Below are positions 24,799 to 43,287 of a stretch of 64,000 nt of DNA, piece after piece. Each line of letters begins with the position of its first letter. Positions within the stretch are counted from its first letter, which is position 1. Source of the DNA: a virus; the IMG/VR virus record IMGVR_UViG_3300042695_002264, positions 96,001 to 160,000 of that record; one strand, written 5' to 3'. Position numbers and translations under genes: made by a program. The notes under the pieces were generated by a model. The model was given only the letters and a program-made list of their open reading frames with translations, was not told where the DNA came from and made no database searches.

Positions 24799-27068
24799 GA
24801 AAATGTATTAGATGTATTGTTTCTTTTTGAAGAAGTTATTATCCTAAAAGATTTTGGACGTATAGGTATTTCTTTATATGAGTAAGAAACTCTAAGACCC
24901 CTGCTATCTAAAGATGCGCTTAAAGACTCTAAACCAGGGACAATTGGCAGGAAAAAACCATCACATTCCGCAGACAGAGTAGATAGCCATTTTTGACCAT
25001 TTCCACCAATAGCCGCAGGAACTTCAAAAGAAGTAGATGGTTCATTTTCATTTGGCGTCACATCGGTTACGATAACACTGTGCGATAGCCCATAATCGCT
25101 ATTGACTGGACCAGAAAATCCCCAAGAATTTATAGCCTGAGCATATCCAGTTTGATTAGATGAGGAATATTCGCTTTTTATGGTTCTAATCGCTTTAAAG
25201 CTAGCAAGTGATGGCATAACTACCTTTATTGACTTTCCATTACAATCAATAGAGTAAGATTTTCCTCTGGCATGCTCTAATCCTGGAGATAATTCTGCTG
25301 AATTTTCGGAACCATTATTAATTACAACATCACGATTTGCATTAATTAAATTTGGAACAATATCTGCGCATTCATCAACTATATCAGGCTTGTCTTGAGG
25401 CGGAACAGGATCAAGTATTGCATTTGGGTCCTCATAATCATAAACTTCTGTTAAGTCATTTGGATTTTCAGATTCAGATGCTGAAGTAATAGTAATATTA
25501 TATCTTGGTCGCTTTACAAATATAATAACCTTTCCATCTTCTTCTATTTGCTTTCTTAATCTTTCCCCAGAAGATACGTAACCCCCAGACTCTTCATTGT
25601 TAGTAGTCGGTGCAACTAAAGTAACTGGAGTGCCTTCTTGGGGGAGGCTTTTTTGGTCATAAATTTGACATATTAAATCATGAGAAACTGTTTTAATACA
25701 ATCTTCAACTGCCTGAGCAAAATCTGCCGCCTCAACATCTCCAGAAACATGCTCGCTTACACTGCGCCAATAGCCCTTTCTAACAATATTATTTTGATCT
25801 TCAAATGTGCTATTGTATGGATTTTTGCCTCTCTGTGAAGGGGGTGGATTAAAAGAAGTTTGTATTTTTTTAAAATTAAACTCGTCTCCACCAGAGCCAT
25901 TAAAATCGTAAGATTCATCATAAGGATAATACAATTCTTGAGTATATTCCTTTGATTGAATATTATTATTCAAAGGATATGCCAAATAAAAATCACCATC
26001 TCCATCAATATTTAAATATTTAAATATTGCATCTCGAAAATTAGTATTTTTTGAATCAAAATTAAAGTTTGTTGATAAAAAATTTCTCCATTTTGGATCT
26101 GTAAGATTTAAAGACATTTCAATTTTAGATAATACATTATAGCCTAATTTTCTATAGTCTCCATTTGTTAATGCATTATAAACTGATAATGATGGGCAAA
26201 CTTTTTCTAAAACTTCATTATCGGTTGGAAAATTTGGGTGAAGAATTGGAGAAATTGAAACATGCTTATTATCTGTAATATTTAACGCAGCTTCTTGGGT
26301 TTGTTTAGTTGGCCATCTTTCAAAAAACCAAGATGATTGAGAAGATACCCCATCTCTAGTCGCTCCATAATCAAGAGACAAAATCCCACAACCTCCTTGA
26401 GGAACATTAATTCTTATAGAGCCATTTTTTATAGCAACTATTTCATCTTTTCTCCAGTCCCACCACCATCCAATTCCCACATCTGAATAAATACCACCTA
26501 AAACACTTCTGTATGTTCCTTCATAAGAGCACCTTAAATTTTCAGAAATTTTAGGCGCACCAATTATAGCTAATGCTTGATTTGCATTATATGTGACATT
26601 GCTAGAGTCACATGGGTTTGATGACCACTCTTCCTGCCCCAAACCTCCAGCCGAATAGCCAGCCTGTCTTTGCACAACTATATTTAAATTTTTAACTCCA
26701 AAACTAAAACTAACTCTTCCCCTATCATAGCTCGCATTTACTGCTGGAACACTTACGGTTTTTGCTATATTAATTGGCCTTCCGCCAAGCCCTCTTCTAA
26801 ATAAAACTATGCATTTTTGATCAAGAGTTATAGAATTATCTATATACTCATAAGTTGTTAAAAATTTTCCTTGTTCTTTATGCGTAGAATAAGAAATTAG
26901 CTGCCCAATAAATTCTATACCACCAATGCCGCCGATATTAGATCGATTAAATCCACGATCGCCCAATGTAGTAACTGATAATTTTGCTGGAGAATCGCTA
27001 ACAGAAGCGCTTAAAGATAGCGAAACTATATCTTTATTTGCTCCAATACTTCTTATTTGAATAGCCAT
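24795..27068 (-). CDS. Putative tail hub / central tail-tip protein
   Basis: Downstream of tape measure; GTYRSVL...D.G.GWWWD segment typical of hub proteins. Confidence 0.45.
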   Translation of the reverse strand: MAIQIRSIGANKDIVSLSLSASVSDSPAKLSVTTLGDRGFNRSNIGGIGGIEFIGQLISYSTHKEQGKFLTTYEYIDNSITLDQKCIVLFRRGLGGRPINIAKTVSVPAVNASYDRGRVSFSFGVKNLNIVVQRQAGYSAGGLGQEEWSSNPCDSSNVTYNANQALAIIGAPKISENLRCSYEGTYRSVLGGIYSDVGIGWWWDWRKDEIVAIKNGSIRINVPQGGCGILSLDYGATRDGVSSQSSWFFERWPTKQTQEAALNITDNKHVSISPILHPNFPTDNEVLEKVCPSLSVYNALTNGDYRKLGYNVLSKIEMSLNLTDPKWRNFLSTNFNFDSKNTNFRDAIFKYLNIDGDGDFYLAYPLNNNIQSKEYTQELYYPYDESYDFNGSGGDEFNFKKIQTSFNPPPSQRGKNPYNSTFEDQNNIVRKGYWRSVSEHVSGDVEAADFAQAVEDCIKTVSHDLICQIYDQKSLPQEGTPVTLVAPTTNNEESGGYVSSGERLRKQIEEDGKVIIFVKRPRYNITITSASESENPNDLTEVYDYEDPNAILDPVPPQDKPDIVDECADIVPNLINANRDVVINNGSENSAELSPGLEHARGKSYSIDCNGKSIKVVMPSLASFKAIRTIKSEYSSSNQTGYAQAINSWGFSGPVNSDYGLSHSVIVTDVTPNENEPSTSFEVPAAIGGNGQKWLSTLSAECDGFFLPIVPGLESLSASLDSRGLRVSYSYKEIPIRPKSFRIITSSKRNNTSNTFS

Positions 27069-27079
27069 AAATTGAAAAA

Positions 27080-28864
27080 TTACAGATTATAAATGATTAC
27101 ACCAGTATTGTAGGTTATTATATCAATTTCATCGCTTTTTTCTACTTCTTGATAATCAAATCCAAGATAAAGCCTTTGCCCGTTTAGCCAAATCATGGAT
27201 GTTTTTTTATTAAAATTAAATGGTACTAAAAAATAAGAACCAGAAGTGTTTTTAATATTATAAGTACCAAAGCCTAATGTATTTTTTTGAACTGTTAATA
27301 CATTATAGTTTCCACTTATATTTCTTAATATCGTATTGGTACCACTGTAATCAATTCCAGAATTTAAAAGTTGACCATTTAAAAAAACAAATGAATTATT
27401 AAAATTTAAACTTGATATATTATTGCCACTATTTATCTGCCCAGTCATTAACAGTTCAGATTTTGGCCAAAAATCAATAAGTGAATTATTTTGATTTATA
27501 AAACCATAATTTGAATTACTAAATATTTTATTTCCAGAAATAAAGTAATCTTCTGATGGTAAATAGTTAATATTTCCACTTTGAATAAGCTCATCATATC
27601 CAGAAGATCTCGTTTGCAATTGCCCATTATAGTATAATCCAGAAAAATCTTCGCCTATAATGCTATCATATCCATAAGAATTATCTGCATTAATATAATA
27701 AAGATTTGTGAAGTTTATTCCCGCATCAATTCCAGAATATCCATATATTGATAAAATATCATTAGGATCGATATTAAATGATAAAGATATAGCATTTTGA
27801 TAATTATAAATATATTCTGGCCGAGATACAAATGCGGAATTATTAGTAATTGAATATTCGATATAATAACCAGAATCATATTCAAATACATTTGTTCCAG
27901 TAAATACACTTGAGCAAAGTGAAAATAAATTTTGTCCACTAGAATATCCTAAAAAATAACCAGTAAAAACTTTTTGAGCGAATTGATTGAAAATCTCATT
28001 ATTAAAATCTAAAAATGATTCGTGTGTTGCAAAATATTCTCCACTACCAGTACTTAATACAATCTCATTCAGCACGCCACTTGATTGAGCAGAGCACTGT
28101 GTTATTTTTATAATATCGCCATTTAATATGCCAGTTTGTCCAGAGATAGCGCCAGTAATAGTATTTGAATTAATAGATGAAATAATGCCACTAACAAATT
28201 CATTTTCAAATATGGAAGAGCTTAAATAATCTGAATTGTAAATAAATATTTCAGCAACTTCAGCAGATAAAAATCTTCCAGATGGCAAGCTTTGACTTCC
28301 TCCAATATAATAATTATTTGATTTTTTAAAATTTTCATCAAGTGGAGCAAATATTTTTTGAAACGAATTAGATTCTGCATCAAATAAGCCCATTGAAATA
28401 GAATTCGATCCATTAATAGAAAAGCTTACAATTCCAGTTTTATTTGCTTTTAAGCTGTGGCATACAGTAATAGGCCCATAAATTTTATGAGCGTATTCAA
28501 AATATGGATAGCCAGCATAGTTTATTCCAAAATTGATTCCGGAATCATAATTATAATTTGCAAAAAAAACATTGTCAGATTTTGCATTCCCTAATTTATA
28601 CGCAAAAATAAAAGATAAAGAATCTCCACTAAAATAATTTAATTTGGCATAGCTTTGGCCATCAAAACTTGCAAATCCAGATTTCGTCCAAAAATTTCCA
28701 GAATTTACCAGCTGTAATTGTTCAGCGCGACTTGTCCAGCTTTCGCTTGGAATATTAATTAGCCCAGATATTCCAGTATTAGAAAAATCAAAATAACCAA
28801 CTATCTGCTCCGTAGATAGATTTTCATTTTTATCAAAAAAATATTTCATTGAATTTGCTGGCAT
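27080..28864 (-). CDS. Tail protein with LamG/ConA-like N-domain and xNGQxL..G.DY repeats
   Basis: GYFDF, FDGQSY, YYIGG...AEIFIYN; three NGQ repeats; about 31 [S/T]G; TAATG overlap start. Confidence 0.55.
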   Translation of the reverse strand: MPANSMKYFFDKNENLSTEQIVGYFDFSNTGISGLINIPSESWTSRAEQLQLVNSGNFWTKSGFASFDGQSYAKLNYFSGDSLSFIFAYKLGNAKSDNVFFANYNYDSGINFGINYAGYPYFEYAHKIYGPITVCHSLKANKTGIVSFSINGSNSISMGLFDAESNSFQKIFAPLDENFKKSNNYYIGGSQSLPSGRFLSAEVAEIFIYNSDYLSSSIFENEFVSGIISSINSNTITGAISGQTGILNGDIIKITQCSAQSSGVLNEIVLSTGSGEYFATHESFLDFNNEIFNQFAQKVFTGYFLGYSSGQNLFSLCSSVFTGTNVFEYDSGYYIEYSITNNSAFVSRPEYIYNYQNAISLSFNIDPNDILSIYGYSGIDAGINFTNLYYINADNSYGYDSIIGEDFSGLYYNGQLQTRSSGYDELIQSGNINYLPSEDYFISGNKIFSNSNYGFINQNNSLIDFWPKSELLMTGQINSGNNISSLNFNNSFVFLNGQLLNSGIDYSGTNTILRNISGNYNVLTVQKNTLGFGTYNIKNTSGSYFLVPFNFNKKTSMIWLNGQRLYLGFDYQEVEKSDEIDIITYNTGVIIYNL

Positions 28865-30396
28865 TAGTTTTCCTCCCAAGTAATTTGAAATGATATTCTC
28901 CCATCAGAAGTTTCATTTGTGAATGTTTTAGTTTTTATAATTGTCATCGCGTATCTGTTAGCAATTGATTCTATATATGCTTTGGCTTTAGCAGAATTTC
29001 CAACCTCTACTTCCATTTGACCGTCAAACGATACAGTGGTTTTAGATCTATGCGTGCCATAAGCTGCCCAATCACTACAAAGTGGTTGTACAAATTCATA
29101 TTGCTGCAATCCATATGTTTTAGTGACTGTATAGGAAATATTTTTTATGTAACAAGGCAAAGATGCATTTATTGGATTTATATCCCAAGATATTGAATAA
29201 GATAATGACCCATCTATCTGATTTTCAGATAGCGATTCTGAGCTTTGCTTGAAATGAGTAACATTAAAATCATTATTTAACCCAGTAATATTCTTACGAA
29301 ATTCTTGCATTGGATTAAAAGAATTTTGGAAAAAGTTATTTACTTGCGCAAGTCTTTCTGTTGGATTTCCAACCCTACATCTTATATTAGAATTTAAAGA
29401 TGCAGAATTTTCCGAATCACCTCCATAACCAATATTATAAGTAGCTGTCGAATCTATATATATAATTGGACTATTATCATTATTGAATGTAACTGAAAAT
29501 GAAATTTGCTTATTTGATAAATCTTCATCTACGCCAGAGTTTACATAAATACTATTTAGATCTCCAGAATTTGTACATCCGCTATAAATATCAAAAGTTA
29601 AATTCCACAAGTTCAGACTTTTATACCTATTTCTTATCAAATCCATTGATCCACTTATGCCAGCATTTAATGTTCCATTGATTGTTGCTGTGGAAAAATT
29701 AAATTTATCATACCCAATATCAACAGAATATCTTAATAATCCATTTCCCGTTTGTGACTGATCAATCGTATAATTTTCAATCCATTGACAGTTGCCATTC
29801 ATTCTATCCATTGTTTCGGATATAGAATTTAATATTGGAAAAGATTGTTGATTTATTTTTATAAAAGCTGTGCTTGGAATATTTTTTAGTCCAGTTCTGG
29901 AGTAAACAAAATTTGTAGCATTTTTAATTGCTGGCAAGTTTGAATTAATACCAACAGCAGAAACCCTATGTGTAAGAGATAGCGTTCCGTCATTATTTTC
30001 AACAAATTCAAAAGAATCTTCCGGCTCTTTAACAAAAAATTGCCCACTAAAAATATCAGAATCAAATGCTTCAATTTCTACTGTATAAGGCAAAATAAAA
30101 GCATAGTTTGACTCATCAAAGTTTACACCCCTAATTAAAGCATAATCTGATTTAAAAATATCAGAACCATTTTCCTTAATCTGAAATCTTTTAAAATTTT
30201 GTGAAAAATTATTTATTAATGCATTTTGCTTTCCAACCATTCCAGAATAATCAGTCCCGCACCCAACTATTTCACCTACAAGAGAAAATGATTTGTTTGA
30301 GCCCCACCACCCATCAAATTCTTGAGAATATGAAACAAATGGCGTATATGAAACCCCACTAAAAGCATTTTTATTATTATACCAAATTTCGTTCAT
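28864..30396 (-). CDS. Putative distal tail protein, paralog of 30398-31954
   Basis: Position; shared L.G.I...LIN...IR.(V/I)N.DE.N....YT..I pattern. Confidence 0.5.
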   Translation of the reverse strand: MNEIWYNNKNAFSGVSYTPFVSYSQEFDGWWGSNKSFSLVGEIVGCGTDYSGMVGKQNALINNFSQNFKRFQIKENGSDIFKSDYALIRGVNFDESNYAFILPYTVEIEAFDSDIFSGQFFVKEPEDSFEFVENNDGTLSLTHRVSAVGINSNLPAIKNATNFVYSRTGLKNIPSTAFIKINQQSFPILNSISETMDRMNGNCQWIENYTIDQSQTGNGLLRYSVDIGYDKFNFSTATINGTLNAGISGSMDLIRNRYKSLNLWNLTFDIYSGCTNSGDLNSIYVNSGVDEDLSNKQISFSVTFNNDNSPIIYIDSTATYNIGYGGDSENSASLNSNIRCRVGNPTERLAQVNNFFQNSFNPMQEFRKNITGLNNDFNVTHFKQSSESLSENQIDGSLSYSISWDINPINASLPCYIKNISYTVTKTYGLQQYEFVQPLCSDWAAYGTHRSKTTVSFDGQMEVEVGNSAKAKAYIESIANRYAMTIIKTKTFTNETSDGRISFQITWEEN

Positions 30397-30397
30397 A

Positions 30398-31954
30398 TTA
30401 TGCTATAGTCGTTACATTATAAGTTGCACTTCTGTCCATCGGACTTATAGATAAAGACTCATCTTGTTTTATTGCTGATGTTGAAATCCTCATATCCTCT
30501 GGAAACGAAACCAAATTTACATTTTTTCCATATTTTCTATTTTTATTTATAGTTACTTCATAAAATGTTTTTTGATCATGCTGCTGCCTAACAATGCTAT
30601 TATTTATATAATAATCAGTATAAATATTTACAGGATATTTTTCAGAAATTGACTCCTTCTCCTCTTCTATTCCGTTTGGATTATTATTTATAGTCTTGTT
30701 TGTATAAGATACGCTATACTGAACTGTTCCATTGTACTTGCTAGAAGTAAATGTTTCATTGCTTTTATTTAATATGCCGCTAGAACTACAGCGGTTTGTA
30801 TTTATTGATAAAAATCTAGAATATAAACTATTTATTTTTGACAATAATAATGATTCTTTTTGATTGTAGCCATAAATAGCATTATTATATTTTCTATCTG
30901 TATTTGGCACGCCATCACCTTGAATAGACAGATTAGCTGTGCAGTTAATTAGGTAAGTATCGCCAAGATCGACAGATGTTTCAATAGACCAATCATACCT
31001 ATTCTCTATAAATGGATTATCCGTATAGACTGTTTCTAATTCAATTGTACCATTAAATCTATCTACGTTATATCCTTGGGTTATTGGAAAATTATTAAGA
31101 GATCCAGTCACATAATTAACATAAAAATTCTGTGATCTTTGATAACAGTTAGGCTTTAATTCTGCTAGTTTATTTTTAACGGTTGTAAATTTAGGATCTT
31201 GATTGGCCTGTATCTGAACAGATTCAGTAACTTCAGTAATTCCATTTTCATCTCTACGAAGTGAATATGAAAAATCAGCGTTTGATGAATCTCCGCTTAT
31301 GTTTTTATCTAACCTTTCTGTAAAAGAAAAAATTTTATTTATTACATCAAAGCTTTCTTCGTAATATTTTTTTCCAGATAAAAAATTAGCATTCCCACTT
31401 ATAAGATTAAATGGCACTTCTTTTCCAATAATTCCAGACGCAATATTTTTTGCTAATAAATCCGCGCTACCATACGCAAGCGCATTTTCAAAACTAAAAC
31501 TCACACTATGTTCATAGCTATAATTATTGCTTGAATCAAGATCTAAAGAAAAATTTTCCGAAAAATCATTCATTAAATGAAGGGATAATCCTGTAAAATT
31601 TTGGAGACCAGTAAAATAATTACCAGTCATATTATATAAATTACCCGTAGATAAAATTAAAATATCAGCCGTATATTCACCACGCCTTACCCAGTTTCCT
31701 TCATCTACATTAATATTTCTTATATATCCAGATCCAAAATTTATCCCATTTAAAACAATATCATCGCTAACTTTTGCCAAATTTATAAGGGCATATATTC
31801 CACTTGATACCCCACTTACACCACTTGTGTTGTAAAAATCTGCAATTGTTCCACGTACAGTAAGATTTTTTTCAATACTATAAACAAAATTATCTCCTAA
31901 AAATTTAGGAGAATGTGAGTATGATAGTAATGCTGCATTATTAAAAGTTATCAT
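30398..31954 (-). CDS. Putative distal tail protein
   Basis: Immediately after tape measure; repeated beta-rich units. Confidence 0.5.
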   Translation of the reverse strand: MITFNNAALLSYSHSPKFLGDNFVYSIEKNLTVRGTIADFYNTSGVSGVSSGIYALINLAKVSDDIVLNGINFGSGYIRNINVDEGNWVRRGEYTADILILSTGNLYNMTGNYFTGLQNFTGLSLHLMNDFSENFSLDLDSSNNYSYEHSVSFSFENALAYGSADLLAKNIASGIIGKEVPFNLISGNANFLSGKKYYEESFDVINKIFSFTERLDKNISGDSSNADFSYSLRRDENGITEVTESVQIQANQDPKFTTVKNKLAELKPNCYQRSQNFYVNYVTGSLNNFPITQGYNVDRFNGTIELETVYTDNPFIENRYDWSIETSVDLGDTYLINCTANLSIQGDGVPNTDRKYNNAIYGYNQKESLLLSKINSLYSRFLSINTNRCSSSGILNKSNETFTSSKYNGTVQYSVSYTNKTINNNPNGIEEEKESISEKYPVNIYTDYYINNSIVRQQHDQKTFYEVTINKNRKYGKNVNLVSFPEDMRISTSAIKQDESLSISPMDRSATYNVTTIA

Positions 31955-34900
31955 TACTTAAGATTATTTTGCGCTTTTAATTGTTGCATTTTCGCACTGA
32001 ATTCATCTAATATTCTTTGTTTTTCTGCTGTTAACTTAAGATCTAAATCCTCTCGTGTTAAACCGCCCAAAGTAAAAGATACTGGGCCAGGATTTATATT
32101 TATAGACGGGACAACTGAAGGGGAATCAGTCAAGCTTATTGGTTTTTCAAAATTAGATGGCTGCGGCTTATCTTTGCCAGACTTTTCTGCAGTAGTTGTG
32201 AAATATTCCAACATAGCTTGTACTGAACTTTCTATTAATTTGAAATTTGCAGCAGCTTGTTCTGCTGAAGTTGTAAGATCAAAAGCCATAGCGTTAACAA
32301 TTGTTTCATATGCCTTAAAAGCTTCGCTTCGATCAGCAAATCCGCCAAGTTGCTGAAGTGCCTTTATAGCAGCCTCAACCTCTTTCGACGAACCTTCAAA
32401 CTTGCCACCTTCCGGTAAAAATCTATTTTTTAAATAATCAATACCTAATTTGCTTGTGCCAGTAGCCTCCCCAACAGCCTGTTGGTTTAACATTCTTGCC
32501 CTGTTTTGATAATCTACTGGAAGCCCAAGATCAAAAGCCCTTTGCGCTGCGTTATTACCAGCCTGCCTCCTCACATTCATTACATCTGATCCAAATCTTG
32601 TAAATATCTCTTCTGGAGTGGCGCCCAAAGACAAAGCCTCTTTTATTCTTTCTTGTGATCTTCTGGCAACAAACTCATTTTGTCCAATTTCACCACCAAA
32701 AAAATCACTCTCTAATTGGCTAATCGCAGATTTGTTTTTATTATAGCTTAATAAGCTATCTATATCTTGAGACAGTTGCTGCGCTATTTTTTTAGAAGCA
32801 TCCTTTATTGCTCCAGCCGCAAGGCTTCTAGTTTTTTCTGCTTGGCCTTTGATATTTATACCAACTTCATCGAAAACTTCTCCATATAATTCTGATAAAA
32901 CCTTTTTAAAACCAGAAGATTCTTCTATAGCTCTTGGGTCAATGTTTAATGTATCACTTATTAATTTTCCAAAATCTTTTTGTATTTGTTCTTTTCCGCC
33001 CAATTCTTTTAATCTAGTTTCTAAATCTGAATCTGTTAAGCCTTGAGTTATACCTGCATTTATTTGTTTTTTAAAAGCATCTCTAATATCTTTTGTCATT
33101 TCTCCAGAATATGTTTCTATTGGTGGCTGCTTGCCTACCAGCATGCCTGGGGCATTTGGGCCAGAGCCAGATCTTCCAACAAACTCAAAAGCCCTTGCTA
33201 TTATAGATCTTCTTTGTGTATTCAATAACTGCTCAACTGATACATCCGCTTGATTCCTGGCTGTTTGTTCTGCTTGTTTTTGTGTAATTTGACCAGAAAC
33301 TTCCGTTAATCCTTGCATTCCGCGCTCTTTAATTGCATTTGTAAATTTTTTAGCAGTTTCAGGATCAAAACTATTTAAATAATTTATATAATTTTGCTCT
33401 GCTTTTCTAAGCTCTGACTGTGGAGCATTTTCTTCTAATAATCTAGTATATGTTTCGTAAGATGTTGCTAGCCCTTGAGTTTTTTCGTTAACCTTGGCCA
33501 ATTCTTCGGTAGATTTTTCTGCTTTAGCCTGCAATTCTGGAAGATTTGTGTTTAATTGTTTTAATATATCTGTTAATCCTATTAGCCCGCCAGTAACCGC
33601 ACCAAGTGCCGCGCCGACTGCCGCTCCCTTTGGTCCAAATGCCATGCCAACCATTCCGCCAGTTCCAGCAAAAGATGCAATTTGGCCAGCGCCACTTACT
33701 GCAGATGCCCCAACCCTTCCGCCTTGTGTATTTTGCGGTATTGCGTTTGCAATTGTTTCTGCAATGATTGGCGCAGCAAATGCCGTTCCAATACCTGGTC
33801 TAAAGCCTTTTGCTGATGATATTCCCCGTTGAAGAATGCCTGCACCTGACCTTCTAGCTGCACGTTGAGCTTGCGCCCTTTGCTCAATATCAAGCATGGC
33901 AGCATTATATCCAGACGATCCTCTTTGTAGTGGGCCAGGCCCCATAGTTGACATTTTTTGAAGATTTGCTTTTTGTTGGGATATAGATTTCCTTTCAAGC
34001 TCAGCCCTTTGCTTATACGTTTCCTTTAATTCATTTACATCTTTTTTTCCTAATTGAGAAATACTAGCAAACAATGCGATTTGCGCGGCAACTGCCCCAA
34101 TAGATTTAGCAAAATCTGAAATACCGCCTTGGGCTTCACCTTCACTACCAACTGCAAAATTTGGAGTAAATCCGGTAGCATACATCCCCATACCTTTGCG
34201 CTCGCGCCCAATTGCATCTTTTAATCCATTAGGTTCGTCACGCGTGTTTGTTACTGCAACTGGATTTCCACTCTTATCAAAGTGCGCGCGAATTTGTGAA
34301 ACTGGAACTCCACGATTTGTAGATGAAAAATTTGGTATAAAACCAGAAGCTTTTGATCTTGATAATTGTCCAGGTTTAATTTTTAATTTATTACTGATAA
34401 AAGCTTTTCTAGCAACATCATTTATTAAATTTTGTTGATTCCCAATTTTTGCTTCGTAGTCTCCAGGAATATTATTAAATAATTTTCTTAATTTGTCATT
34501 TGGGTTAACAAAGTCAATAATAGCACTTGATCCACCAGACCTTCCGGCCTGTGTAACAGCAGAATCTGTAGCCTGCGTCACGGCACTTTCAAATATATTA
34601 CCAGCAATACTTCTAAAAGATCCATAATTTGCAAGCTGTTGTACTGATTTTATTCTAGCATTTGGAGAATAATTGCCGAAAATGCTTATAAATCGATTTG
34701 TAAAATCAATAACTTGATCTCCTAATAATTTTTCTAACTGAGCATCTTCTGGTTTAACTTTGGCATTGTAACCACTTGATTTAAATCCTACTTTATAAGT
34801 TTTTCCATTTGGTGTTTTTTTATCTGTAATAAGGCCCTTTTGATCTGTATTGAAAAATCCTGTCTCATCTTTTATCCCAGCTTTTTCGCCATATATTAAA

Positions 34901-36996
34901 CTTAAAGTACTAGTTTTGCCAAGATCAATAGTACTAGATGAACTTTTTCCCAGAGATGGTTTTTTTGCTGTGCCTAGTCTAGAATTAACAGCTTCAGCCG
35001 TAAATCTTTGACTTAATTGTGATCTAGAATATTGATTGCTTTGTATTGCCTCTTCTAATGAAATATTTGGTGGCAATTTTGTTTTTGCAAAATTTGGAAT
35101 AAAACCAGAAGATGAAATTTTACGAGCACCACTTGGCAACCCATACTTTGCTTTCATATCTTTGTTAAAGATAGCAGTTCCATCCCCACCAGCAAAATTT
35201 GGCACAACCCACTCTCCGGTATGTGCAGTTATTTTACCTTTCTTGCCTCCACCAAATGCAAAATTCGGAATAGTAACGGGCCTATCAGTTGCCGGATTTG
35301 CGCCACCAACTCTTGCATTAATATTCGCTTGCTCAATTGATTCTGGTAAATATCCAGCAGCAGCAGTTTTTGTCTTTGTAGCTACAAACTGCCTTCCTCC
35401 TATTGTTTGTACCCCAACAGATCCAGCAAGTGATTTAGATATCGATGCAGCAACAGAATTTTGCCTTTGCAAAGCTGCTGTCTGTTGTTGTATAACTGCC
35501 AAATATTCTTTGGCCGCAGTTGAAACAGAAACCTGCCCCTTTAAAATAGAATTATACAAACCGCTATTGTTTTGTAAAAATTTTGCTATATTTTGCTGAA
35601 CCACCACCTGCTCTTTTCCTGCCTGATTTGTTCCCAAAATACTTTTAAAAGCCTCTGCTCCATACTTTGTAAACTCAGCTAATAACTTAACGATTATTGC
35701 CGTTGCTAAAGCGAGCCCAGGCCCAGCAATAAATTTACCAAGACCATCAATTACCCCTCTACCAATCTGACCACCAACGCTTTGCGAATCTGCATTTCCC
35801 ACAGACTCTGTTAATAAATTTGTTAAGTTTAAAACATTTCTAGCAGCATCTCCAAATAACCCCTCTCCAAGAGTTCCAGCAACTTTTTGAACATTTGCCA
35901 ATGTTTTTGTTCCCAACGCAGATAACGTTTGATTTAACTGTTCATTTCTTTGAATGGCCTGATCGGTACTCGATAATGATGTTTTAAGCGCACGGTCGTA
36001 AATTGAATACTCCTTACCTAAATCACCTAAAGCAGCTTTTAAGATGTTAATCTGGAAAACGCCGCCAACCTGCTCTGCTACATAATTTTTTTGAGTAGCT
36101 CCAAGCGTATCATAAACTAATGCAAGCTCTTTTAAAAGTTGAATTTGTGTTTTTACCTGACCGCTTTCATCAGTTGCGCTAATTCCAAGACCGCCCAAAA
36201 CCTCTTGAACTTTTTCTCGACCAAGTCTTGTAAAAATTGTTTTCAGTGAGTTTCCTATAACCGCACCTCCACGAGCAGTAATTTGCTGCGCAGTTGTCAC
36301 TAAAGCTATCAATTCGTCAAAAGAAATTCCAGCATCGTCAGCAGAAGATCCAACACGACTCAATGCATTAGCCAAATCTGCAGAGCTAACAGCAAATGCG
36401 GCATCAACATTAGCCAGCTTATTTACAATTTCTGTCGCTTCCAATGTCGCACTCTGAAAAGAGTTCATTGTAGCAGTAAGAGCCGCAACACTTGCTGCAG
36501 CATCCAGACCACTTAAACGAGTCAAGATTAGCGCTGCCTCAGTACGTTTTAATGTTTCTTCTACCCCAAGGCCCTGACGAGACAACTCTGTTGCTGCTTC
36601 TGCAACAACATCAAATGCTTGCGCTGTATTTCCAGCAATATCAAATAATGAGCTTCCAAAAGCCGCAAGATTTTTTTCTGACAAATTTAATATAACATTT
36701 ATGTCTTGTAATTTTTTCTCTGTATTTACAAAACTCTGAAATAAAGACACTACTGCATTTTGTAATGCAAAAATACTTCCAGCAGCTGCGCCGAATGCAA
36801 TAACACGAGCATTAGCAGCAGCCAAAGACTTATCAATTTCAGTTATTTGGCCGCTTAATTTTCCTAATGGTTGAGCGGCCCCCCTACCACCAGCCTGCAC
36901 ATCAATAACTAGTGGCTGCTTAGCAACTTGGTTTATCTGTTGCCTAAGCTTCGCTGTATTACCGCTAACATCTACGCTAATATTTGGGTTTGCCAT
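31954..36996 (-). CDS. Tail tape measure protein (TP901-like core) with GFxPNF repeats
   Basis: AATELSRQG, LANVDAAFAVSSADLANAL, GAVIGNSLKTIFTRL; coiled coil and glycine-zipper hydrophobic segments; 1680 aa. Confidence 0.9.
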   Translation of the reverse strand: MANPNISVDVSGNTAKLRQQINQVAKQPLVIDVQAGGRGAAQPLGKLSGQITEIDKSLAAANARVIAFGAAAGSIFALQNAVVSLFQSFVNTEKKLQDINVILNLSEKNLAAFGSSLFDIAGNTAQAFDVVAEAATELSRQGLGVEETLKRTEAALILTRLSGLDAAASVAALTATMNSFQSATLEATEIVNKLANVDAAFAVSSADLANALSRVGSSADDAGISFDELIALVTTAQQITARGGAVIGNSLKTIFTRLGREKVQEVLGGLGISATDESGQVKTQIQLLKELALVYDTLGATQKNYVAEQVGGVFQINILKAALGDLGKEYSIYDRALKTSLSSTDQAIQRNEQLNQTLSALGTKTLANVQKVAGTLGEGLFGDAARNVLNLTNLLTESVGNADSQSVGGQIGRGVIDGLGKFIAGPGLALATAIIVKLLAEFTKYGAEAFKSILGTNQAGKEQVVVQQNIAKFLQNNSGLYNSILKGQVSVSTAAKEYLAVIQQQTAALQRQNSVAASISKSLAGSVGVQTIGGRQFVATKTKTAAAGYLPESIEQANINARVGGANPATDRPVTIPNFAFGGGKKGKITAHTGEWVVPNFAGGDGTAIFNKDMKAKYGLPSGARKISSSGFIPNFAKTKLPPNISLEEAIQSNQYSRSQLSQRFTAEAVNSRLGTAKKPSLGKSSSSTIDLGKTSTLSLIYGEKAGIKDETGFFNTDQKGLITDKKTPNGKTYKVGFKSSGYNAKVKPEDAQLEKLLGDQVIDFTNRFISIFGNYSPNARIKSVQQLANYGSFRSIAGNIFESAVTQATDSAVTQAGRSGGSSAIIDFVNPNDKLRKLFNNIPGDYEAKIGNQQNLINDVARKAFISNKLKIKPGQLSRSKASGFIPNFSSTNRGVPVSQIRAHFDKSGNPVAVTNTRDEPNGLKDAIGRERKGMGMYATGFTPNFAVGSEGEAQGGISDFAKSIGAVAAQIALFASISQLGKKDVNELKETYKQRAELERKSISQQKANLQKMSTMGPGPLQRGSSGYNAAMLDIEQRAQAQRAARRSGAGILQRGISSAKGFRPGIGTAFAAPIIAETIANAIPQNTQGGRVGASAVSGAGQIASFAGTGGMVGMAFGPKGAAVGAALGAVTGGLIGLTDILKQLNTNLPELQAKAEKSTEELAKVNEKTQGLATSYETYTRLLEENAPQSELRKAEQNYINYLNSFDPETAKKFTNAIKERGMQGLTEVSGQITQKQAEQTARNQADVSVEQLLNTQRRSIIARAFEFVGRSGSGPNAPGMLVGKQPPIETYSGEMTKDIRDAFKKQINAGITQGLTDSDLETRLKELGGKEQIQKDFGKLISDTLNIDPRAIEESSGFKKVLSELYGEVFDEVGINIKGQAEKTRSLAAGAIKDASKKIAQQLSQDIDSLLSYNKNKSAISQLESDFFGGEIGQNEFVARRSQERIKEALSLGATPEEIFTRFGSDVMNVRRQAGNNAAQRAFDLGLPVDYQNRARMLNQQAVGEATGTSKLGIDYLKNRFLPEGGKFEGSSKEVEAAIKALQQLGGFADRSEAFKAYETIVNAMAFDLTTSAEQAAANFKLIESSVQAMLEYFTTTAEKSGKDKPQPSNFEKPISLTDSPSVVPSININPGPVSFTLGGLTREDLDLKLTAEKQRILDEFSAKMQQLKAQNNLK

Positions 36997-37071: not shown

Positions 37072-38085
37072 TTATTTTTTTATTAAATCATAGATCCCCA
37101 AATCACCCCTCTGATTTGTTTCTTGTATAATTTTATCCCCAGATACCTCGCCACCACCAATGGCCTTAACTTCATCCCTATTTCCAAATAAAAATGAAGA
37201 GCTATTATCTGAGCCAGATTTATTTTTTAATTTATTACGGGCATCTGACATTGTTTCTTTTTGCTTTTTAGACGCCTCAAACCAGTCAATTATTTTGTCT
37301 GGATCCTCATAAATGCTATCTGGAATATTGCCATCTGAATTTTTGATAATATTTTGATAATACTTTCCAAAAATAAGCAAATCAGACTGATGTTTTGTCA
37401 AATCTATAGCACATTTTCCAAACACATCTTTTGGGTTTGATCCTGAAATATAAATAATATTTTGAAAAAGTGACGAGATAGCCAGCTGTTTAATTTTCTT
37501 TTCTGCGAAATCTGTTAAAAATTTATAGTAATAAATAGTTAATTCATCAACAAGCAAATCGTCAGATAATTCAAAATCATCTATCTGTTCAAAAAACCTT
37601 TTATTAAAATATTGATCTTTAAATACAAAATTTTGCAAAAAATAATCTACGGTTTTCTTGCTAGACCAATCTTCAGCAGTCATTACAATATAAGCACTTC
37701 TTTCATCTTTTAACTTCTTAAGACGATTTTCTTGCTCTTTAATCTGTTCTGATATTCTAGACTTATCAGATTCGTAAATTAGCTTTGATTGAGTTTTTTT
37801 TAACCTATCTATGGAAATTTTAGTAGATTCAAGCGCACCCTCTTTTTCTTTTGTCCACCACCCATTATCATAAGCAGTTTGAATTTGCTCTTTTTCTGGA
37901 AAAATTCCATGATGTCTCGCCAGCTTTAAATTACCAGCATAATCATTTCTTATTCCAAGAAGTTCAAAATGATTTAAGTGCTTAAAATACGCTGGCTGTT
38001 TTTCACTAGAAATCAGCACATATTTGCTATAGCCATTAGATATATCTTCTAATACGGCCAATAATATATCAATTTGGCCATCCAT
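37072..38085 (-). CDS. Putative tail assembly chaperone
   Basis: Between tail tube and tape measure; helical and charged. Confidence 0.5.
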   Translation of the reverse strand: MDGQIDILLAVLEDISNGYSKYVLISSEKQPAYFKHLNHFELLGIRNDYAGNLKLARHHGIFPEKEQIQTAYDNGWWTKEKEGALESTKISIDRLKKTQSKLIYESDKSRISEQIKEQENRLKKLKDERSAYIVMTAEDWSSKKTVDYFLQNFVFKDQYFNKRFFEQIDDFELSDDLLVDELTIYYYKFLTDFAEKKIKQLAISSLFQNIIYISGSNPKDVFGKCAIDLTKHQSDLLIFGKYYQNIIKNSDGNIPDSIYEDPDKIIDWFEASKKQKETMSDARNKLKNKSGSDNSSSFLFGNRDEVKAIGGGEVSGDKIIQETNQRGDLGIYDLIKK

Positions 38086-38098
38086 GGATTATTATATT

Positions 38099-38830
38099 TT
38101 AACTAGATTCTTTTTGTGATGCAGAGTCAACCAAAACAAAATCTTGCCATTGATTAATTTTATTTAAAAACCATAAAGTTATTAAATAGTTAAATCTTTG
38201 ACCAATTTTTACCAAATAGACATCATTTTCATCATCTAAATTTAAACCATCATACCAGTCTAATTTTTGATCAAAACTTGTGCCTTCAAAAAATTTTTCG
38301 TTTTCATTTTTATATGCCAGCTCTGTCAACCACCATTGAATCGACATATTTCTAGCTTTTGCCTCTGCTGTGTTTTCAAAAATATAAATCTGTTCAAGTT
38401 CAAATGTTTGTATATCTTTTTTAACTTGATCAATTTCCTCTTGCAGCCGTGCTTGTTTTACCGTCTGCTCTTCGTTTAATTCTGAAATTTGTTCAAGTTT
38501 ATTTAATTCTATACTGTATTCAAAAAATTTTTTCCTGGCATCGGTATATTGCTGAGCCTCTGATTCTGAAATTGTTCCACCCAAATTTTCTAAAATAGTA
38601 TTCCATGCAGCTTTTGGTAAAAGCCCAGACTTCACAAAGCTTGCAAGTTGCTTTGCATATTCTATTTCGCCCATTTGCCTTAAAGAGCGCGAAGGTTTTA
38701 GGATATAAAATGTATTTTCTTCACCTTTTGGATTTTTAGCCTCAAAAGCATAAAGCCATTTTTTAGTATCAAAATCTGCTTTTATTTCGTTCTGATTTTG
38801 GTCGTTTTGGTTATCAATATTTTCACTCAT
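38099..38830 (-). CDS. Putative tail assembly chaperone
   Basis: Position; coiled coil; TAE..A motif shared with the neighbouring ORF (TAEAKA vs TAEDWS). Confidence 0.5.
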   Translation of the reverse strand: MSENIDNQNDQNQNEIKADFDTKKWLYAFEAKNPKGEENTFYILKPSRSLRQMGEIEYAKQLASFVKSGLLPKAAWNTILENLGGTISESEAQQYTDARKKFFEYSIELNKLEQISELNEEQTVKQARLQEEIDQVKKDIQTFELEQIYIFENTAEAKARNMSIQWWLTELAYKNENEKFFEGTSFDQKLDWYDGLNLDDENDVYLVKIGQRFNYLITLWFLNKINQWQDFVLVDSASQKESS

Positions 38831-38832
38831 AT

Positions 38833-39069
38833 TTACTTATTATTATCCTTATTAATTAAAACAAAATCAAAATTTTCTATCTCTTGTAGAATTTCTCTTA
38901 TGCAGTTATTTCCATTATCAAGAATTCTTTTTCTTATTTTTTGAAATTCTTCCTCAGACATTCGACCGTCAGCAACAATGTCTTCTAGACAGTATATAAA
39001 GAATAAAAAGAGACGAGTAACAGATTTTTTAATAAAACCTTTAATAAATTCTTTAATATCAAATTTCAC
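38833..39069 (-). CDS. Small hypothetical protein (GTG start), possible regulator
   Basis: ORF with basic FQKIRKRILDNGNN segment. Confidence 0.55.
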   Translation of the reverse strand: MKFDIKEFIKGFIKKSVTRLFLFFIYCLEDIVADGRMSEEEFQKIRKRILDNGNNCIREILQEIENFDFVLINKDNNK

Positions 39070-39103
39070 CTTTATAAACCTTTTTCCTTAATAGGTATTA
39101 CAC
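39068..39103 (-). promoter_or_regulatory. GTGTAAT motif plus AAGGAAAAAGGTTTATAAAGG leader
   Basis: Near-identical to the tape measure leader. Confidence 0.55.
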
Positions 39104-39105
39104 TT

Positions 39106-39140
39106 AAAAAACAAAAAGGGCAGGATTTCTCCTGCCCTTT
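39106..39140 (-). terminator. Intrinsic terminator after tail tube gene
   Basis: AAAGGGCAGG-agaaat-CCTGCCCTTT then TTGTTTTT. Confidence 0.85.
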
Positions 39141-39159
39141 ATTTGTTAAGTTTTATTGA

Positions 39160-40272
39160 TTAGCTTAATGCTGCCACTGGATAACTTCCAGATAAGAAAA
39201 TACCGCGAACAGTATCTTCTGGTCCGCCAATTGGAACTTCGAAATCGGCACTTAATGTTGCATTTCCACCAATTGTTGTAGCAAGGGCTTGGCTTACCAA
39301 TTTGGCGCCCTTTAGCGTAGCGCTCATAGCTACATCTCCTTGCCCAGAACAGTTGATTTTTTTCAATTTCAATGTTAAATCGTATGTTCCAGTTTGGCAC
39401 AATAAATCAGAAACGCTACCATTAGTTAAATCTCCAATTTCTGTTTCAACAGAAAGAGTTGCTGTAACAGGGAAATCAATTTCTCTTGCAAAAGAGAATC
39501 TACTGCCCAATTTATTGATTGGCGTACGTGTTAAGTCAAAGCTCATAGAAGCGCTTTGAATTTTTAAGTCGCTTGCGGCAAAACCAACAACGCCAGTTAA
39601 ATCAAGAGTTGCATCGCCTGGAAGTAGTGCCGTTGGTTGTGCTCCGTATGCATTTGTTTTATGTTGTGGCAAAACAAAGTACTGACCCGCAATAGACAAT
39701 CCATTTTCAGGATTTACTGCAGGAACATCATTTGTTCCAGTAACATTTCCATAAATTTTTGTATTTAATGCCTCTAAGGCAACTGTTGCTGTAGGTATAT
39801 CTCCAACGGCAACATCAAGCGTATAAGAAGTGATGAATGTATTTCCAATACCAACAACGCCGCTAACACTTCCAGCAAAACTAGAAGCATCACTTCCTTC
39901 AGATGTTACTAAAAGATATAAATTTTTTTCATCTGTATTCTTTTGAAGAATATCTTTAATGCAAGATACTCCAGCTTGGTTACCAGTTGTTACCGTTAGC
40001 CCCAAAAATTTTTCATTAAGGCCATCTGTAACATAATAAGAAACGTTAGAAGTAACGGTTGGTGCTTCTGCATCAAGACGATCAATGAACGCCAAGTTAC
40101 CAAATTGGTTGATGTCTGTTAAATTGCGTGTAAAATCTGAGTCAAAAGACTGTACACGGGTTAACTGTTTGATGTCGCTAGCGCCAGTTTGCATGATTCT
40201 AGCACCATTTGAGCCAGTTGTTTGGCTGGCAAAAACTCCTAGTGATTGATAAATAATTCGATTTCTGCTCAT
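39160..40272 (-). CDS. Major tail (tube) protein
   Basis: Position; own terminator; RVQS...R.DINQFG and repeated IQS...R.PINKLG tube-fold units. Confidence 0.7.
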   Translation of the reverse strand: MSRNRIIYQSLGVFASQTTGSNGARIMQTGASDIKQLTRVQSFDSDFTRNLTDINQFGNLAFIDRLDAEAPTVTSNVSYYVTDGLNEKFLGLTVTTGNQAGVSCIKDILQKNTDEKNLYLLVTSEGSDASSFAGSVSGVVGIGNTFITSYTLDVAVGDIPTATVALEALNTKIYGNVTGTNDVPAVNPENGLSIAGQYFVLPQHKTNAYGAQPTALLPGDATLDLTGVVGFAASDLKIQSASMSFDLTRTPINKLGSRFSFAREIDFPVTATLSVETEIGDLTNGSVSDLLCQTGTYDLTLKLKKINCSGQGDVAMSATLKGAKLVSQALATTIGGNATLSADFEVPIGGPEDTVRGIFLSGSYPVAALS

Positions 40273-40349
40273 ATTTTTATATTAATTTAAATTAAAGTAT
40301 TACTCTTATATAATTACATTTAAAAAGCATGAAAGGCACATTTTTTTTG

Positions 40350-41225
40350 TTATAATCTTGGCTGCCTCACATACTTCACTGTAAAATCAGCAAATCCACC
40401 ATAGGCGTTATTTCCTAAAAGTTTATTAACAGAAGGTGCAAATCTGGATATTTTAACAGATTCAACTAGCGCCATTAGAGAGCCAGTCTGGCAATATTGT
40501 GAGTATAAATTATTAAAATTATAATTTAATCCATTTTTATAATCACCATAAATATTAAAAGGCATATCTTTAGGATGTAGTACTGGAAAATATTTTCTTG
40601 CCATATCTGTGGCTATAGAAACGCCAGCATCTAGCAAATATGGCGAATCAGCCAAAAATATACATCTAATATCCAAAACAGTTTCATCTAATCCGCCAAA
40701 TGCGAATGGTAAATTTTCTGTATATTGACTTTTTACAAAAATAGCTGGATATGTAACTTGGTCATGTTGAAGTGGCGTATTCGCAATATTTCCATAATTG
40801 TCCGTTGGCCTTACTGGATATTTTGCCTCAAATATAAGCTCTTCGTCTTGAGATTCGTTATAATAAACATTATATTCTTTATAAGCATATGATAGTTTTA
40901 AGTTATTAAGATTTGAGGGGGCAGATCCATTAAATATTGTCCTGCCCATATCATAATCAATATAAAGCCCACTCGAACCTTTATTTATAATAACATTGCC
41001 AGCACTTACTCCAGATGGAATATTTGCCCCTATAACTGAGCTATCTGCAACAAATTGTCTATATGGACTAGAATAAATTTTTTTATCTGGAAAATTTGGA
41101 TCTTCAGTTTGATACAATTGCCCGCTATTAACATTTACAAACCCATTACCTTTATAAAGCATTTCATGATCTATAAAGAGCGTGAAGCTTGGTGCTATTC
41201 GATTTAAAAACTGTGGAGACATCAT
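40350..41225 (-). CDS. Putative tail completion/terminator protein
   Basis: Upstream of tube; YPAIFV...PFAFGG. Confidence 0.5.
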   Translation of the reverse strand: MMSPQFLNRIAPSFTLFIDHEMLYKGNGFVNVNSGQLYQTEDPNFPDKKIYSSPYRQFVADSSVIGANIPSGVSAGNVIINKGSSGLYIDYDMGRTIFNGSAPSNLNNLKLSYAYKEYNVYYNESQDEELIFEAKYPVRPTDNYGNIANTPLQHDQVTYPAIFVKSQYTENLPFAFGGLDETVLDIRCIFLADSPYLLDAGVSIATDMARKYFPVLHPKDMPFNIYGDYKNGLNYNFNNLYSQYCQTGSLMALVESVKISRFAPSVNKLLGNNAYGGFADFTVKYVRQPRL

Positions 41226-41229
41226 GCGA

Positions 41230-41820
41230 TTATAATTCCTTTAAATTTTTAATAAATTTTGTCCAAATTGGAGACCAGTATTTTGTTGTTCTATATATTG
41301 ATCCTCTTACAGGACTTTTTGCTTGTATACCGCCGCCAGAACGTCCAAGCTTTTTAGATATAAAGTTTGAAAATCCAGAAATTCCGCGCTCAATAGATAT
41401 TATCCATGACTTTCCAGACTCCCATGGCATTCCAGCATTAGAGACATATTCATTATTTTTAATTTGATCTACTTGAAACTCAAGCACAAAACCATTATTG
41501 CCATTTTGACGCTCGCCACTTTTGCGTAAAATTCTTATCTTTTGCTCTATAAAATTTACCCACTGATCTACCGGATTATCACCATTATCAAAACCTATAA
41601 AAGAAAATAGATTTCCATATCCACCCAAAGTACCAGACGAATTTGAAGACGATGAACCTCCTGCAATTTCTGCAGAAACTGGATGCGCTTTAAAATCATT
41701 TATAAGTTCAATTTTTGCGTTCGCTAGTTTTGTTTCCGCAACTGCACGCATTTGTTTTTGAACATTTGACGTTTTTAAAACTGCTAAATTTAAAAGTTTT
41801 GGATCGACAAGTTTTGGCAT
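41230..41820 (-). CDS. Putative neck/tail completion protein
   Basis: Position; basic. Confidence 0.45.
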   Translation of the reverse strand: MPKLVDPKLLNLAVLKTSNVQKQMRAVAETKLANAKIELINDFKAHPVSAEIAGGSSSSNSSGTLGGYGNLFSFIGFDNGDNPVDQWVNFIEQKIRILRKSGERQNGNNGFVLEFQVDQIKNNEYVSNAGMPWESGKSWIISIERGISGFSNFISKKLGRSGGGIQAKSPVRGSIYRTTKYWSPIWTKFIKNLKEL

Positions 41821-42263
41821 TATTGCATATCCCTTCTTTTTGCGTATATTGTATAAAAATTAATATCAAATAAACCATGTGGCTTTGGAACTCCAACTAT
41901 TTCACATGGCAAATCATCAACATAAAAAGATTGATATCCACTTAAAAAATCATATGCATCTTTTTTCATTTTTAGCCTACATAATTGCCCAGGTAGTGGA
42001 TTTTCAATTGGTAAATTTTCTTCTTTACGAGGGTCTAGCCACTGTATTCTCATTAAAAATGTTCCTGATACTGGTGTCGTATCATACTGCAAATTGGCAC
42101 CCTGCTTATAGCCCCTATACGCTGAAATATAATCATCATTACTTATAATATCAATACGCTCTGGCATTTTATATATAATAACATTTCTTCCAAATGTATC
42201 ATGCAAATTATTAAATTGCGAAGACATTTCTGCTTTTTCTGCAGCTGATAAAAAAGATGGCAT
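41820..42263 (-). CDS. Putative head closure (stopper) protein
   Basis: Position and size; HDTFGR.V.IY. Confidence 0.5.
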   Translation of the reverse strand: MPSFLSAAEKAEMSSQFNNLHDTFGRNVIIYKMPERIDIISNDDYISAYRGYKQGANLQYDTTPVSGTFLMRIQWLDPRKEENLPIENPLPGQLCRLKMKKDAYDFLSGYQSFYVDDLPCEIVGVPKPHGLFDINFYTIYAKRRDMQ

Positions 42264-42266
42264 AAA

Positions 42267-42815
42267 TTATAAACCAGGTTCGCTTCTTGGATAATACACG
42301 CTACGATTTGCTTCCGCCCAATAACCGCCATCGACAACATCAGTTCCATCAACCGATTGTGGTTTGGATTTTGATTTCAAGTATTGTTTTACCAAGTTAT
42401 TGGCATTATCTTGAGCATCCTTACGAAAACCTTGGTAAGTTCTGGCAAGCTCTGATCTATTAACTCTTGTTATTGTGGAATCGCCCTCTTTTAATGTAGT
42501 CCATGCGCCAATATTATATGCACCAGAAAGGGCCATTTTAGCCTCTCTACCATAAAAAAATGTATCAAAATTAGCCTTATAAATTGATTGCTCTTGATTT
42601 CCCAATTGAGGCTCTATGCCAATACCAGTAACCTTTCCGGCATTAGAAAAATAAGGCGTTACTTGATAACATCCATCAATTTGATTATTCAAATAGCCAA
42701 GATTTGCAGGGTCTAAAAACCAACCAACCAAATATGTGCTAGAATAATCGTCTCTGTCGCCCAAATCAGAAGAGACATTATTTACAAAATCATTTAACCA
42801 TTTAGGGTATTGCAT
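42267..42815 (-). CDS. Putative head-tail adaptor (start reassigned to MQYPKW)
   Basis: Position; LKEGDSTITR hairpin; TGTAAT motif just upstream. Confidence 0.5.
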   Translation of the reverse strand: MQYPKWLNDFVNNVSSDLGDRDDYSSTYLVGWFLDPANLGYLNNQIDGCYQVTPYFSNAGKVTGIGIEPQLGNQEQSIYKANFDTFFYGREAKMALSGAYNIGAWTTLKEGDSTITRVNRSELARTYQGFRKDAQDNANNLVKQYLKSKSKPQSVDGTDVVDGGYWAEANRSVYYPRSEPGL

Positions 42816-42857
42816 GTTATTAATTACACGCAATCAGTGCTTAATTAATCTACAAAA

Positions 42858-43223
42858 TTAAGCGCCCTCTCTGAGTATTTTATGAACGTTTTTTGGTACC
42901 GATGATGGTACAGAGGCTGTATTTACCTGTCCGGATTTGAACGATGCCACATGTCTCAAAAATTCATTTACCAATCTTTCTTTTAAGATATGTGATTCAA
43001 CGTCTGGTCTAAGCCCAACATCTCTAGCATGATTTTGAAGATCAACTGGCAACATGTCATTTAATTTTGCAGTATATACCTCTAAATCCATAGTTCCATA
43101 TTTTGACAAACCATCAGATCCCCAAATTTGCTCTAGAGCAGTTGGCTTATTAGCAGCAATTTTTCCATCAATTTCAATATTTTGATTTAATGCTTCTTTA
43201 GATGTGTGTTTCTTTCTTGGCAT
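42858..43223 (-). CDS. Hypothetical protein downstream of capsid gene
   Basis: ORF; short helical (Rho-N/SAP-like) DLQNHARDVGL...LKERL segment. Confidence 0.5.
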   Translation of the reverse strand: MPRKKHTSKEALNQNIEIDGKIAANKPTALEQIWGSDGLSKYGTMDLEVYTAKLNDMLPVDLQNHARDVGLRPDVESHILKERLVNEFLRHVASFKSGQVNTASVPSSVPKNVHKILREGA

Positions 43224-43287
43224 AATATTATTTATTTAATTTATTATAATAATAGCCTAGGCACAATTCTAAATTAATATTTAATAT

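Follow-up and report, generated by a model that had tools for sequence, protein, structure and literature searches.

What does a tape measure protein carry between the copies of a repeated peptide, and are these passengers exchanged? The question is raised by a gene in a 64,000-nt stretch of viral DNA (positions 96,001 to 160,000 of the IMG/VR virus record IMGVR_UViG_3300042695_002264; below, the window), which is part of the 170.5-kb record of an uncultured phage. The gene encodes a tape measure protein, in which the initial annotation described a TP901-like core followed by copies of a GFxPNF motif, with a globular-looking segment between two of the copies read as a PD-(D/E)xK nuclease-like cargo in a swappable cassette. 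We observe that the GFIPNF peptide is a module border, and that recombination between related phages swaps whole cassettes exactly at this peptide, while the flagged segment (module A) is a near-universal core module of the family, not a variable passenger. The relevant parts of the gene (aa, amino acid positions of the protein) are the following.

31954..36996, minus strand: tape measure protein gene P0001, 1680 aa (open reading frame list and translation)
36061..36627, minus strand: TP901-type PhageMin_Tail core, aa 124-312 (Pfam PF10145, E 1e-25)
35338..35361, minus strand: first motif copy, AAGYLPES (aa 546-553), degenerate compared to the canonical AAGYIPNFA of relatives
35113..35337, minus strand: short first module, aa 554-628, holding TIPNFA and VVPNFA
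inside the short first module, minus strand: reduced motif TIPNFA, aa 575-580
inside the short first module, minus strand: reduced motif VVPNFA, aa 597-602
35086..35112, minus strand: motif copy SSGFIPNFA (aa 629-637), which bounds the exchanged cassette on the left
34345..35088, minus strand: module A, aa 637-884, the segment previously called nuclease-like
34324..34350, minus strand: motif copy ASGFIPNFS (aa 883-891), which bounds it on the right
34180..34323, minus strand: module B, aa 892-939, a short terminal module with a conserved NTRDEP stretch
34153..34179, minus strand: ATGFTPNFA, aa 940-948, the last motif copy

Translation yields every motif copy, from AAGYLPES to ATGFTPNFA, where the initial annotation had placed it, and the TP901-like core (PF10145, aa 124-312) does precede the motifs, which start at aa 546. 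The PF10145 score of 91.3 bits, against a gathering cut-off of 33.2, assigns the protein to the TP901 family. Moreover, 11 PHROG tape-measure families match the 1680-aa protein (E 1.8e-43 to 3e-07), and this long gene is situated in a virion module, co-oriented with large unannotated structural genes and the portal gene. In a six-frame scan of the window with a relaxed form of the motif, matches within long open reading frames are confined to the tape measure gene (four) and a 779-codon frame at 7535 (one); the motif recurs in the window more than by chance.

The word-indexed search with aa 540-960 retrieved at least 465 long proteins, all metagenomic, and PF10145 is present in nearly all of the 120 matches listed. 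The phages of this family would be marine or freshwater ones, and the label Bacteroidota is attached to some of the records. The 150 collected relatives have from 2 to 12 motif copies per protein. The consensus over 543 instances is (K/R-rich)-A-[AS]-x-G-[FY]-[IV]-P-N-[FY]-A, with G, P and N conserved in 100% of instances, F/Y in 99%, I/V in 98%, and A in 74%. At the nucleotide level, the three copies present in the window contain nothing beyond what AT-rich codon use predicts.

Relatives were cut at the motif and the pieces were clustered, giving approximately 30 module clusters: A (124 proteins, 204-342 aa), B (105 proteins, 51-76 aa, nearly always in the last slot), the short leading clusters C, D, F, G and T, and about 25 rarer ones. 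The leading clusters C, D, F, G and T contain the equivalents (60-85 aa) of the short first module of the window, which itself belongs to aa 1-640, the stretch matched by the largest number of collected relatives. The architectures are combinatorial, e.g., A-B, C-A-B, E-A-H-B, V-A-J-O-B and R-A-S-Z-B among others. Module B is almost as widespread as module A, and contains a conserved N-T-R-D-E-P-x-G stretch.

The relative P0008 shares 95% identity with the window protein in aa 1-640 and 86% in aa 879-1680, but carries E-A'-H where the window protein has A, with A' and A only 31% identical. The DNA of its contig, L001, aligns colinearly with the window (88% identity) as far as position 35087, one base inside the 3' (downstream) end of the first canonical motif, the last codon of which is at 35086-35088. 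Between 35087 and 34320 the window DNA shows no similarity to L001; the next motif copy ends four bases before 34320, and from 34320 onward similarity is back at 92%. Among 13 close relatives, 33 of 45 internal breaks of similarity occur at most 12 aa from a motif in both partners, mostly at 1-4 aa, although these 33 are not independent events, as many reuse the same border.

Since the cassette breaks coincide with the motifs both in the DNA comparison with L001 and among the 13 relatives, the swappable-cassette idea of the initial annotation is right at the genetic level, and the modules delimited by the motif in the collected tape measure homologs indeed vary in number and kind. Different domains occupy equivalent slots and are exchanged at a conserved border. 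On the contrary, the flagged segment does not behave as a variable cargo shared with other delivery contexts: it is present almost universally, and only its versions are exchanged.

The DNA at the first canonical motif (window 35076-35106) also aligns, with 91% identity in 33 nt, to another motif copy of the same relative, that at aa 845-855 (L001:5533-5565). This short homology might seed cassette exchange.

Several searches show where module A occurs. In an exhaustive HMMER search, aa 625-900 matched 40 clusters among 1.84 billion representatives, all comprised of long tape-measure-like proteins or short fragments of these, and module A is seen nowhere else; in the ESM Atlas feature search no score exceeded 0.82, and all matches were tape-measure-like clusters. 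A core-profile search identified both the motif and the module A core in 144 of 147 long relatives, with two having neither and one the motif alone. Clusters I, X and Y, as well as several singletons, turned out to be divergent versions of module A, and R modules, to be its core-only second copies, the core being present twice in some proteins. No match to aa 540-960 was found in 50,697 GenBank phage records, where cultured phages match only the TP901 core (aa 137-462, approximately 30% identity to SPbeta YomI-type proteins), and the array region has no relative in 185,579 prokaryote species genomes.

Short "stand-alone" module proteins were considered as split genes and rejected, being contig fragments or frameshifted long-read assemblies. 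In the relatives from loci L005 and L006, the tape measure genes are chopped into open reading frames of 200-600 aa on apparent long-read contigs (one labelled 4x), and look like frameshift artefacts rather than split genes.

The versions of module A diverge to about 20-30% identity, and the mean column identity over 107 modules is 17%. About ten positions are near-invariant, including G792, G799, F802, E/D803, D828, F840, E/D848, K850 and K/Q864. The region that holds them, aa 790-867, includes the three stretches from which the nuclease-like pattern had been read.

34396..34629, minus strand: conserved catalytic-type core, aa 790-867, with N790, G792, G799, F802, E803, D828, F840, E848, K850 and K864
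34447..34605, minus strand: AGNIFESAV (aa 798-806), IIDF (aa 826-829) and GDYEAK (aa 845-850)

In the 107 aligned modules, position 803 is acidic in 100%, D828 is present in 100%, position 848 is acidic in 100%, and K850 is present in 100%. In the wider set of 153 core instances position 803 is again 100% acidic, position 828 is D in 150, E in two and Q in one, and positions 848 and 850 are gapped in two. Hence the residues of the motif E...D...(D/E)xK are conserved, and in this order. Read from one sequence, such a pattern would be weak by itself; as the named residues are among the few near-invariant positions, the initial annotation had picked exactly those that selection preserves.

The reading that we put forward, with slightly more doubt than confidence, is that module A has an enzymatic function, probably that of a metal-dependent hydrolase, and is expelled together with the tape measure protein. 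In this reading, the region aa 546-948 is an array of independently folding modules between two hydrophobic segments, joined by the invariant peptide. Module A would work via a PD-(D/E)xK-like arrangement of the site on a fold that has no detectable relative, with a fixed constellation in which a helix bears E/D803, the strand that comes after D828 bears (D/E)848-x-K850, and the helix following it bears K/Q864. It would travel in three copies with the tape measure protein and be expelled into the host envelope at infection, while the invariant peptide may serve both as a recognition element (a processing or docking site) and as a recombination joint. It is known that tape measure proteins exit the tail upon infection and that enzymatic domains can be part of them (PMC1796659, PMC5099701).

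The hydrophobic segments are located as follows.

minus strand: hydrophobic segments of the tape measure protein, aa 57-90, 415-446, 959-984, 1068-1087 and 1116-1142 (Kyte-Doolittle scan, 19-aa window)
35659..35754, minus strand: hydrophobic segment aa 415-446, ahead of the module array (Kyte-Doolittle)
34045..34122, minus strand: hydrophobic segment aa 959-984, directly after the array (Kyte-Doolittle)

As the array (aa 546-948) is bracketed by two of these segments, it may form a soluble loop on one side of the membrane after ejection. The segments recall the membrane-associated regions described for the TP901-1 tape measure protein (PMC5099701). The segments at aa 1068-1142 (window 33571-33795) are glycine-rich, with a weak match to an Rz-like spanin PHROG.

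Some points weigh against module A being an obligatory enzyme. The term "enzyme" reflects the conservation pattern, as no family or fold match has been found, and the charges that are kept invariant can have a structural role, as salt bridges or as an ion site of a trimer. Moreover, the relatives were sampled with a query that contained module A, and its universality is therefore partly biased; still, many relatives recruited by aa 540-640 alone also carry it.

With an alignment, AlphaFold2 models module A at pLDDT 85.2 and pTM 0.71, so that the segment described initially as globular-looking does model as a domain; in the single-sequence mode, pLDDT for aa 625-900 is 39. In the core pLDDT is 83-97, except for aa 818-827 (approximately 71), and values below 50 are observed at model residues 1-4 and 262-265, inside both flanking motif copies, which suggests that the border peptide is a flexible linker. 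The model starts with three short helices, followed by long strands at aa 689-705, 708-717 and 732-743, then has two long helices, the second bearing G799-x-x-F-E803, a one-residue bridge adjoining D828, and a short helix, and ends with the strand D-Y-E-A-K and a helix with K864. The predicted topology is beta-beta-beta-alpha-alpha-(bridge)-alpha-beta-alpha, with strands of 10-17 residues and helices of 19-20 residues.

No match to this model was found by Foldseek in PDB or in BFVD at E<=0.001, and in the Atlas structure search TM did not exceed 0.27. Similarly, phmmer and profile searches of the module against PDB, Pfam, PHROGs and NCBIfam produced no match. In the VIA structure search the best Z is 3.2, compared to the typical 7-8; so low a value despite a confident model suggests an elongated shape that would fit residence in the tail lumen.

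A trimmed core profile produced two weak repeats in each of two plant lectins of the hemopexin fold (4oei and 3v6n, E about 3e-4) at the G-x-x-F-E...D stretch. These matches were judged to arise by chance, as the stretch is beta in hemopexin blades and confident helix in module A, and the position of module A that is aligned with the conserved Asp of hemopexins is not itself conserved.

The absence of fold matches, together with the long strands and helices fitting an elongated shape, is also what one would expect if module A were not an enzyme at all, but a structural element (a plug, a spacer or a part of the membrane channel) in the tail lumen, with the charges serving as an ion site or as salt bridges between the chains of the trimer, the motif as a docking peptide (for the tube, the chaperone of tail assembly or a protein of the host envelope), and exchange only tuning tail length or fit to the host. 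The restriction of module A to tape measure proteins, unlike typical enzyme or toxin domains, agrees with this explanation, as does the existence of tape measure repeats serving length and flexibility (PMC5099701). We nevertheless consider it rather unlikely: three invariant acidic positions, the last followed by x-Lys, and a further Lys, all within approximately 60 residues while the rest is at about 17% column identity, are more typical of a catalytic or metal site; the core-only R module keeps this site without the N-terminal sheet; and some slots hold an acetyltransferase fold, so that enzymatic passengers do occur.

If module A is an enzyme, is it the PD-(D/E)xK nuclease initially proposed? 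It could be a true, very divergent and topologically rearranged member of this superfamily, delivered by the tape measure protein and either cutting host nucleic acid or handling the phage DNA end on entry; we regard this as unlikely. The residue order and setting are indeed those of PD-(D/E)xK nucleases (the minimal members of the Hjc/YraN type, and Cas4/AddB PDDEXK_1): both have G-x-x-[FW]-E on a helix, a hydrophobic stretch followed by D (here 25 aa further on), (D/E)-x-K on a strand (20 aa further), and a polar residue (here K/Q) on the next helix. The only local hhalign match of module A to the PDDEXK_1 family alignment places N790, G792, F802 and E803 on its first-helix N-x-G...F-E motif, which is suggestive but not significant, the probability being 0.3-0.6%. 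Bse634I, alone among the 50 VIA matches listed, aligns over more than 100 residues (model 117-259, 106 aligned), covering the C-terminal half of the model.

The family models weigh against membership. Hjc, VRR_NUC and PDDEXK_1, few of the many member families (in profile-profile comparison, PDDEXK_1 only), were tested in six-frame searches of the phage genome at E<=1, and all missed the tape measure gene, although PDDEXK_1 does recover the phage's own Cas4/AddB-like nuclease.

G000:C1:85499-86224, outside the window (locus L004:1237-2244), minus strand: PDDEXK_1 (Cas4/AddB-like) protein, 335 aa

This protein has the invariant cysteines C19, C267, C275 and C325 and at least 145 relatives at E <= 1e-5; PF12705 is present in 120 of the 120 relatives listed.

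Further, Pfam and NCBIfam scans of 107 module A members revealed no nuclease family; no nuclease stands above noise in the Foldseek PDB, VIA, BFVD and Atlas searches; and no profile relationship to nucleases was detected with the few families covered, the hhalign probability not exceeding 0.6%. The canonical order of the restriction-endonuclease core fold is alpha-beta-beta-beta-alpha-beta, with a mixed sheet. The model of module A has neither the canonical strand before the strand of D nor a strand after the last helix, and its spacer between D and (D/E)xK contains a helix, so that the strand order differs. The initial annotation had made its nuclease claim depend on the segment modeling as a restriction-endonuclease fold, and by this measure the claim probably fails. 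Altogether, judging from the conserved positions, a PD-(D/E)xK-like acid/base-metal site is more likely than true membership in the superfamily.

Some accessory slots contain other domains. A GNAT acetyltransferase domain (PF00583) directly follows module A in the same slot in two long tape measure proteins of relatives, P0140:812-1186 and P0141:797-1251, scoring 24.2 and 25.8 bits, respectively, against the Pfam cut-off of 20.7; at least one inter-motif slot in relatives thus holds a different enzyme domain, as was suggested initially. Module O resembles, below threshold, the C-terminal part of MJ0951/TmcAL-type proteins, and none of the remaining accessory modules matched a family. VanY, lysozyme and SLT domains of some relatives are located at aa ~1680-1990, approximately 700-1000 aa downstream of the array. 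Literature searches for nuclease or acetyltransferase domains in tape measure proteins returned nothing relevant.

A quite improbable possibility is a self-processing injection polyprotein reprogrammable by recombination, in which the peptide would be a cleavage signal, module A, a new hydrolase (either the protease for this signal or a nuclease-like enzyme on a new fold), and GNAT-like slots, effectors released into the host with the DNA.

A related frame from ENA contig k141_101497 (L003:904-7344) is broken by TAG (codon 681) and TAA (codon 1147), located 9 and 21 codons upstream of canonical GFIPNF motifs, with homologous sequence continuing beyond each stop; the gene may be split, the stops may be read through, or the assembly may be in error.

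Finally, in a self-processing polyprotein the peptide would be the cleavage site (e.g., after the invariant Asn), module A, a protease or a cleavage cofactor, and the modules, including GNAT, would be released in tail maturation or after ejection. It would fit this explanation that an invariant linker at every module border and a single obligatory module of catalytic type are found together almost without exception, as in viral polyproteins, that the linker is modeled with low confidence at both ends of module A, and that basic residues precede it; the two in-frame stops of L003 would be tolerable if the pieces work separately. In lambda and T5, the tape measure proteins are processed at the C-terminus. 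The polyprotein explanation is very doubtful, as no protease family or fold is detected, module A has no conserved Ser, Cys or His, cuts at the reduced motif copies, only 22-35 aa apart, would yield tiny peptides, and the other apparently split forms are assembly artefacts.

Among the 20 neighbors of the tape measure gene in the virion module (window 23632-31954 and 37072-46793), none has a PHROG match, the sole exception being the protein at window 51062-52957 with a weak portal match; a Pfam scan of ten of these 20 also gave no match. The whole structural module of the phage is very divergent.

How does the preferred reading, an exchangeable array with a putative enzyme at its core, compare to known systems? 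Mycobacteriophage tape measure proteins (TM4 with Mt3, and others) carry embedded enzymatic motifs (Piuri and Hatfull, 2006, PMC1796659). Similarly to the array, their inserts comprise a functional domain that does not determine length and acts at infection, and are mosaic among related phages; they contain recognizable peptidoglycan hydrolase or Rpf-like motifs and have no repeated bounding linker (PMC1796659). Here, on the contrary, module A and most passengers belong to no known family, arrays reach approximately 12 slots with the same invariant peptide at every border, and the recognizable wall hydrolases are situated downstream of the array, not inside it.

TP901-1, p2 and other tape measure proteins have aromatic repeats of 11 or 18 residues (Mahony et al., 2016, PMC5099701). 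In both cases the elements are repeated, contain aromatic residues, and are thought to ease gain and loss of segments. However, the TP901-1 and p2 repeats are helical with a short period, their side chains are dispensable, and the 11-aa repeat can be replaced by alanines (PMC5099701), whereas the peptide described here has 7-9 residues with invariant G, P and N, recurs at a spacing of 50-500 aa, and separates folded domains.

With polymorphic toxin and effector systems (Rhs, CDI, T6SS cargo), the array shares a constant delivery scaffold and variable modules exchanged at a conserved border peptide, and with viral polyproteins, the co-occurrence of one obligatory catalytic-type module with the border motif. 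Unlike Rhs, CDI and T6SS cargo, the modules match no known toxin family (in Pfam, none except GNAT), no immunity genes were seen, although none were searched for, and the module in the window is the conserved one, not the variable tip. As literature searches for the motif also found nothing relevant, an array with a repeated invariant border peptide and one obligatory catalytic-type module is apparently undescribed.

Of all phage proteins, the tape measure proteins reach the host envelope first, and they are known to be sensed by defence systems. To our knowledge, the activities embedded in them are known only for cell-wall hydrolases. The family considered here has a different design, with a fixed scaffold, an invariant joint peptide, an obligatory catalytic-type module on an unmatched fold, and optional modules exchanged between phages with otherwise approximately 90% identity. 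Should the peptide be a signal for docking or processing, tail assembly would gain a new handle, and should the modules act in the host, they would constitute a modular effector-delivery route built into the tail.

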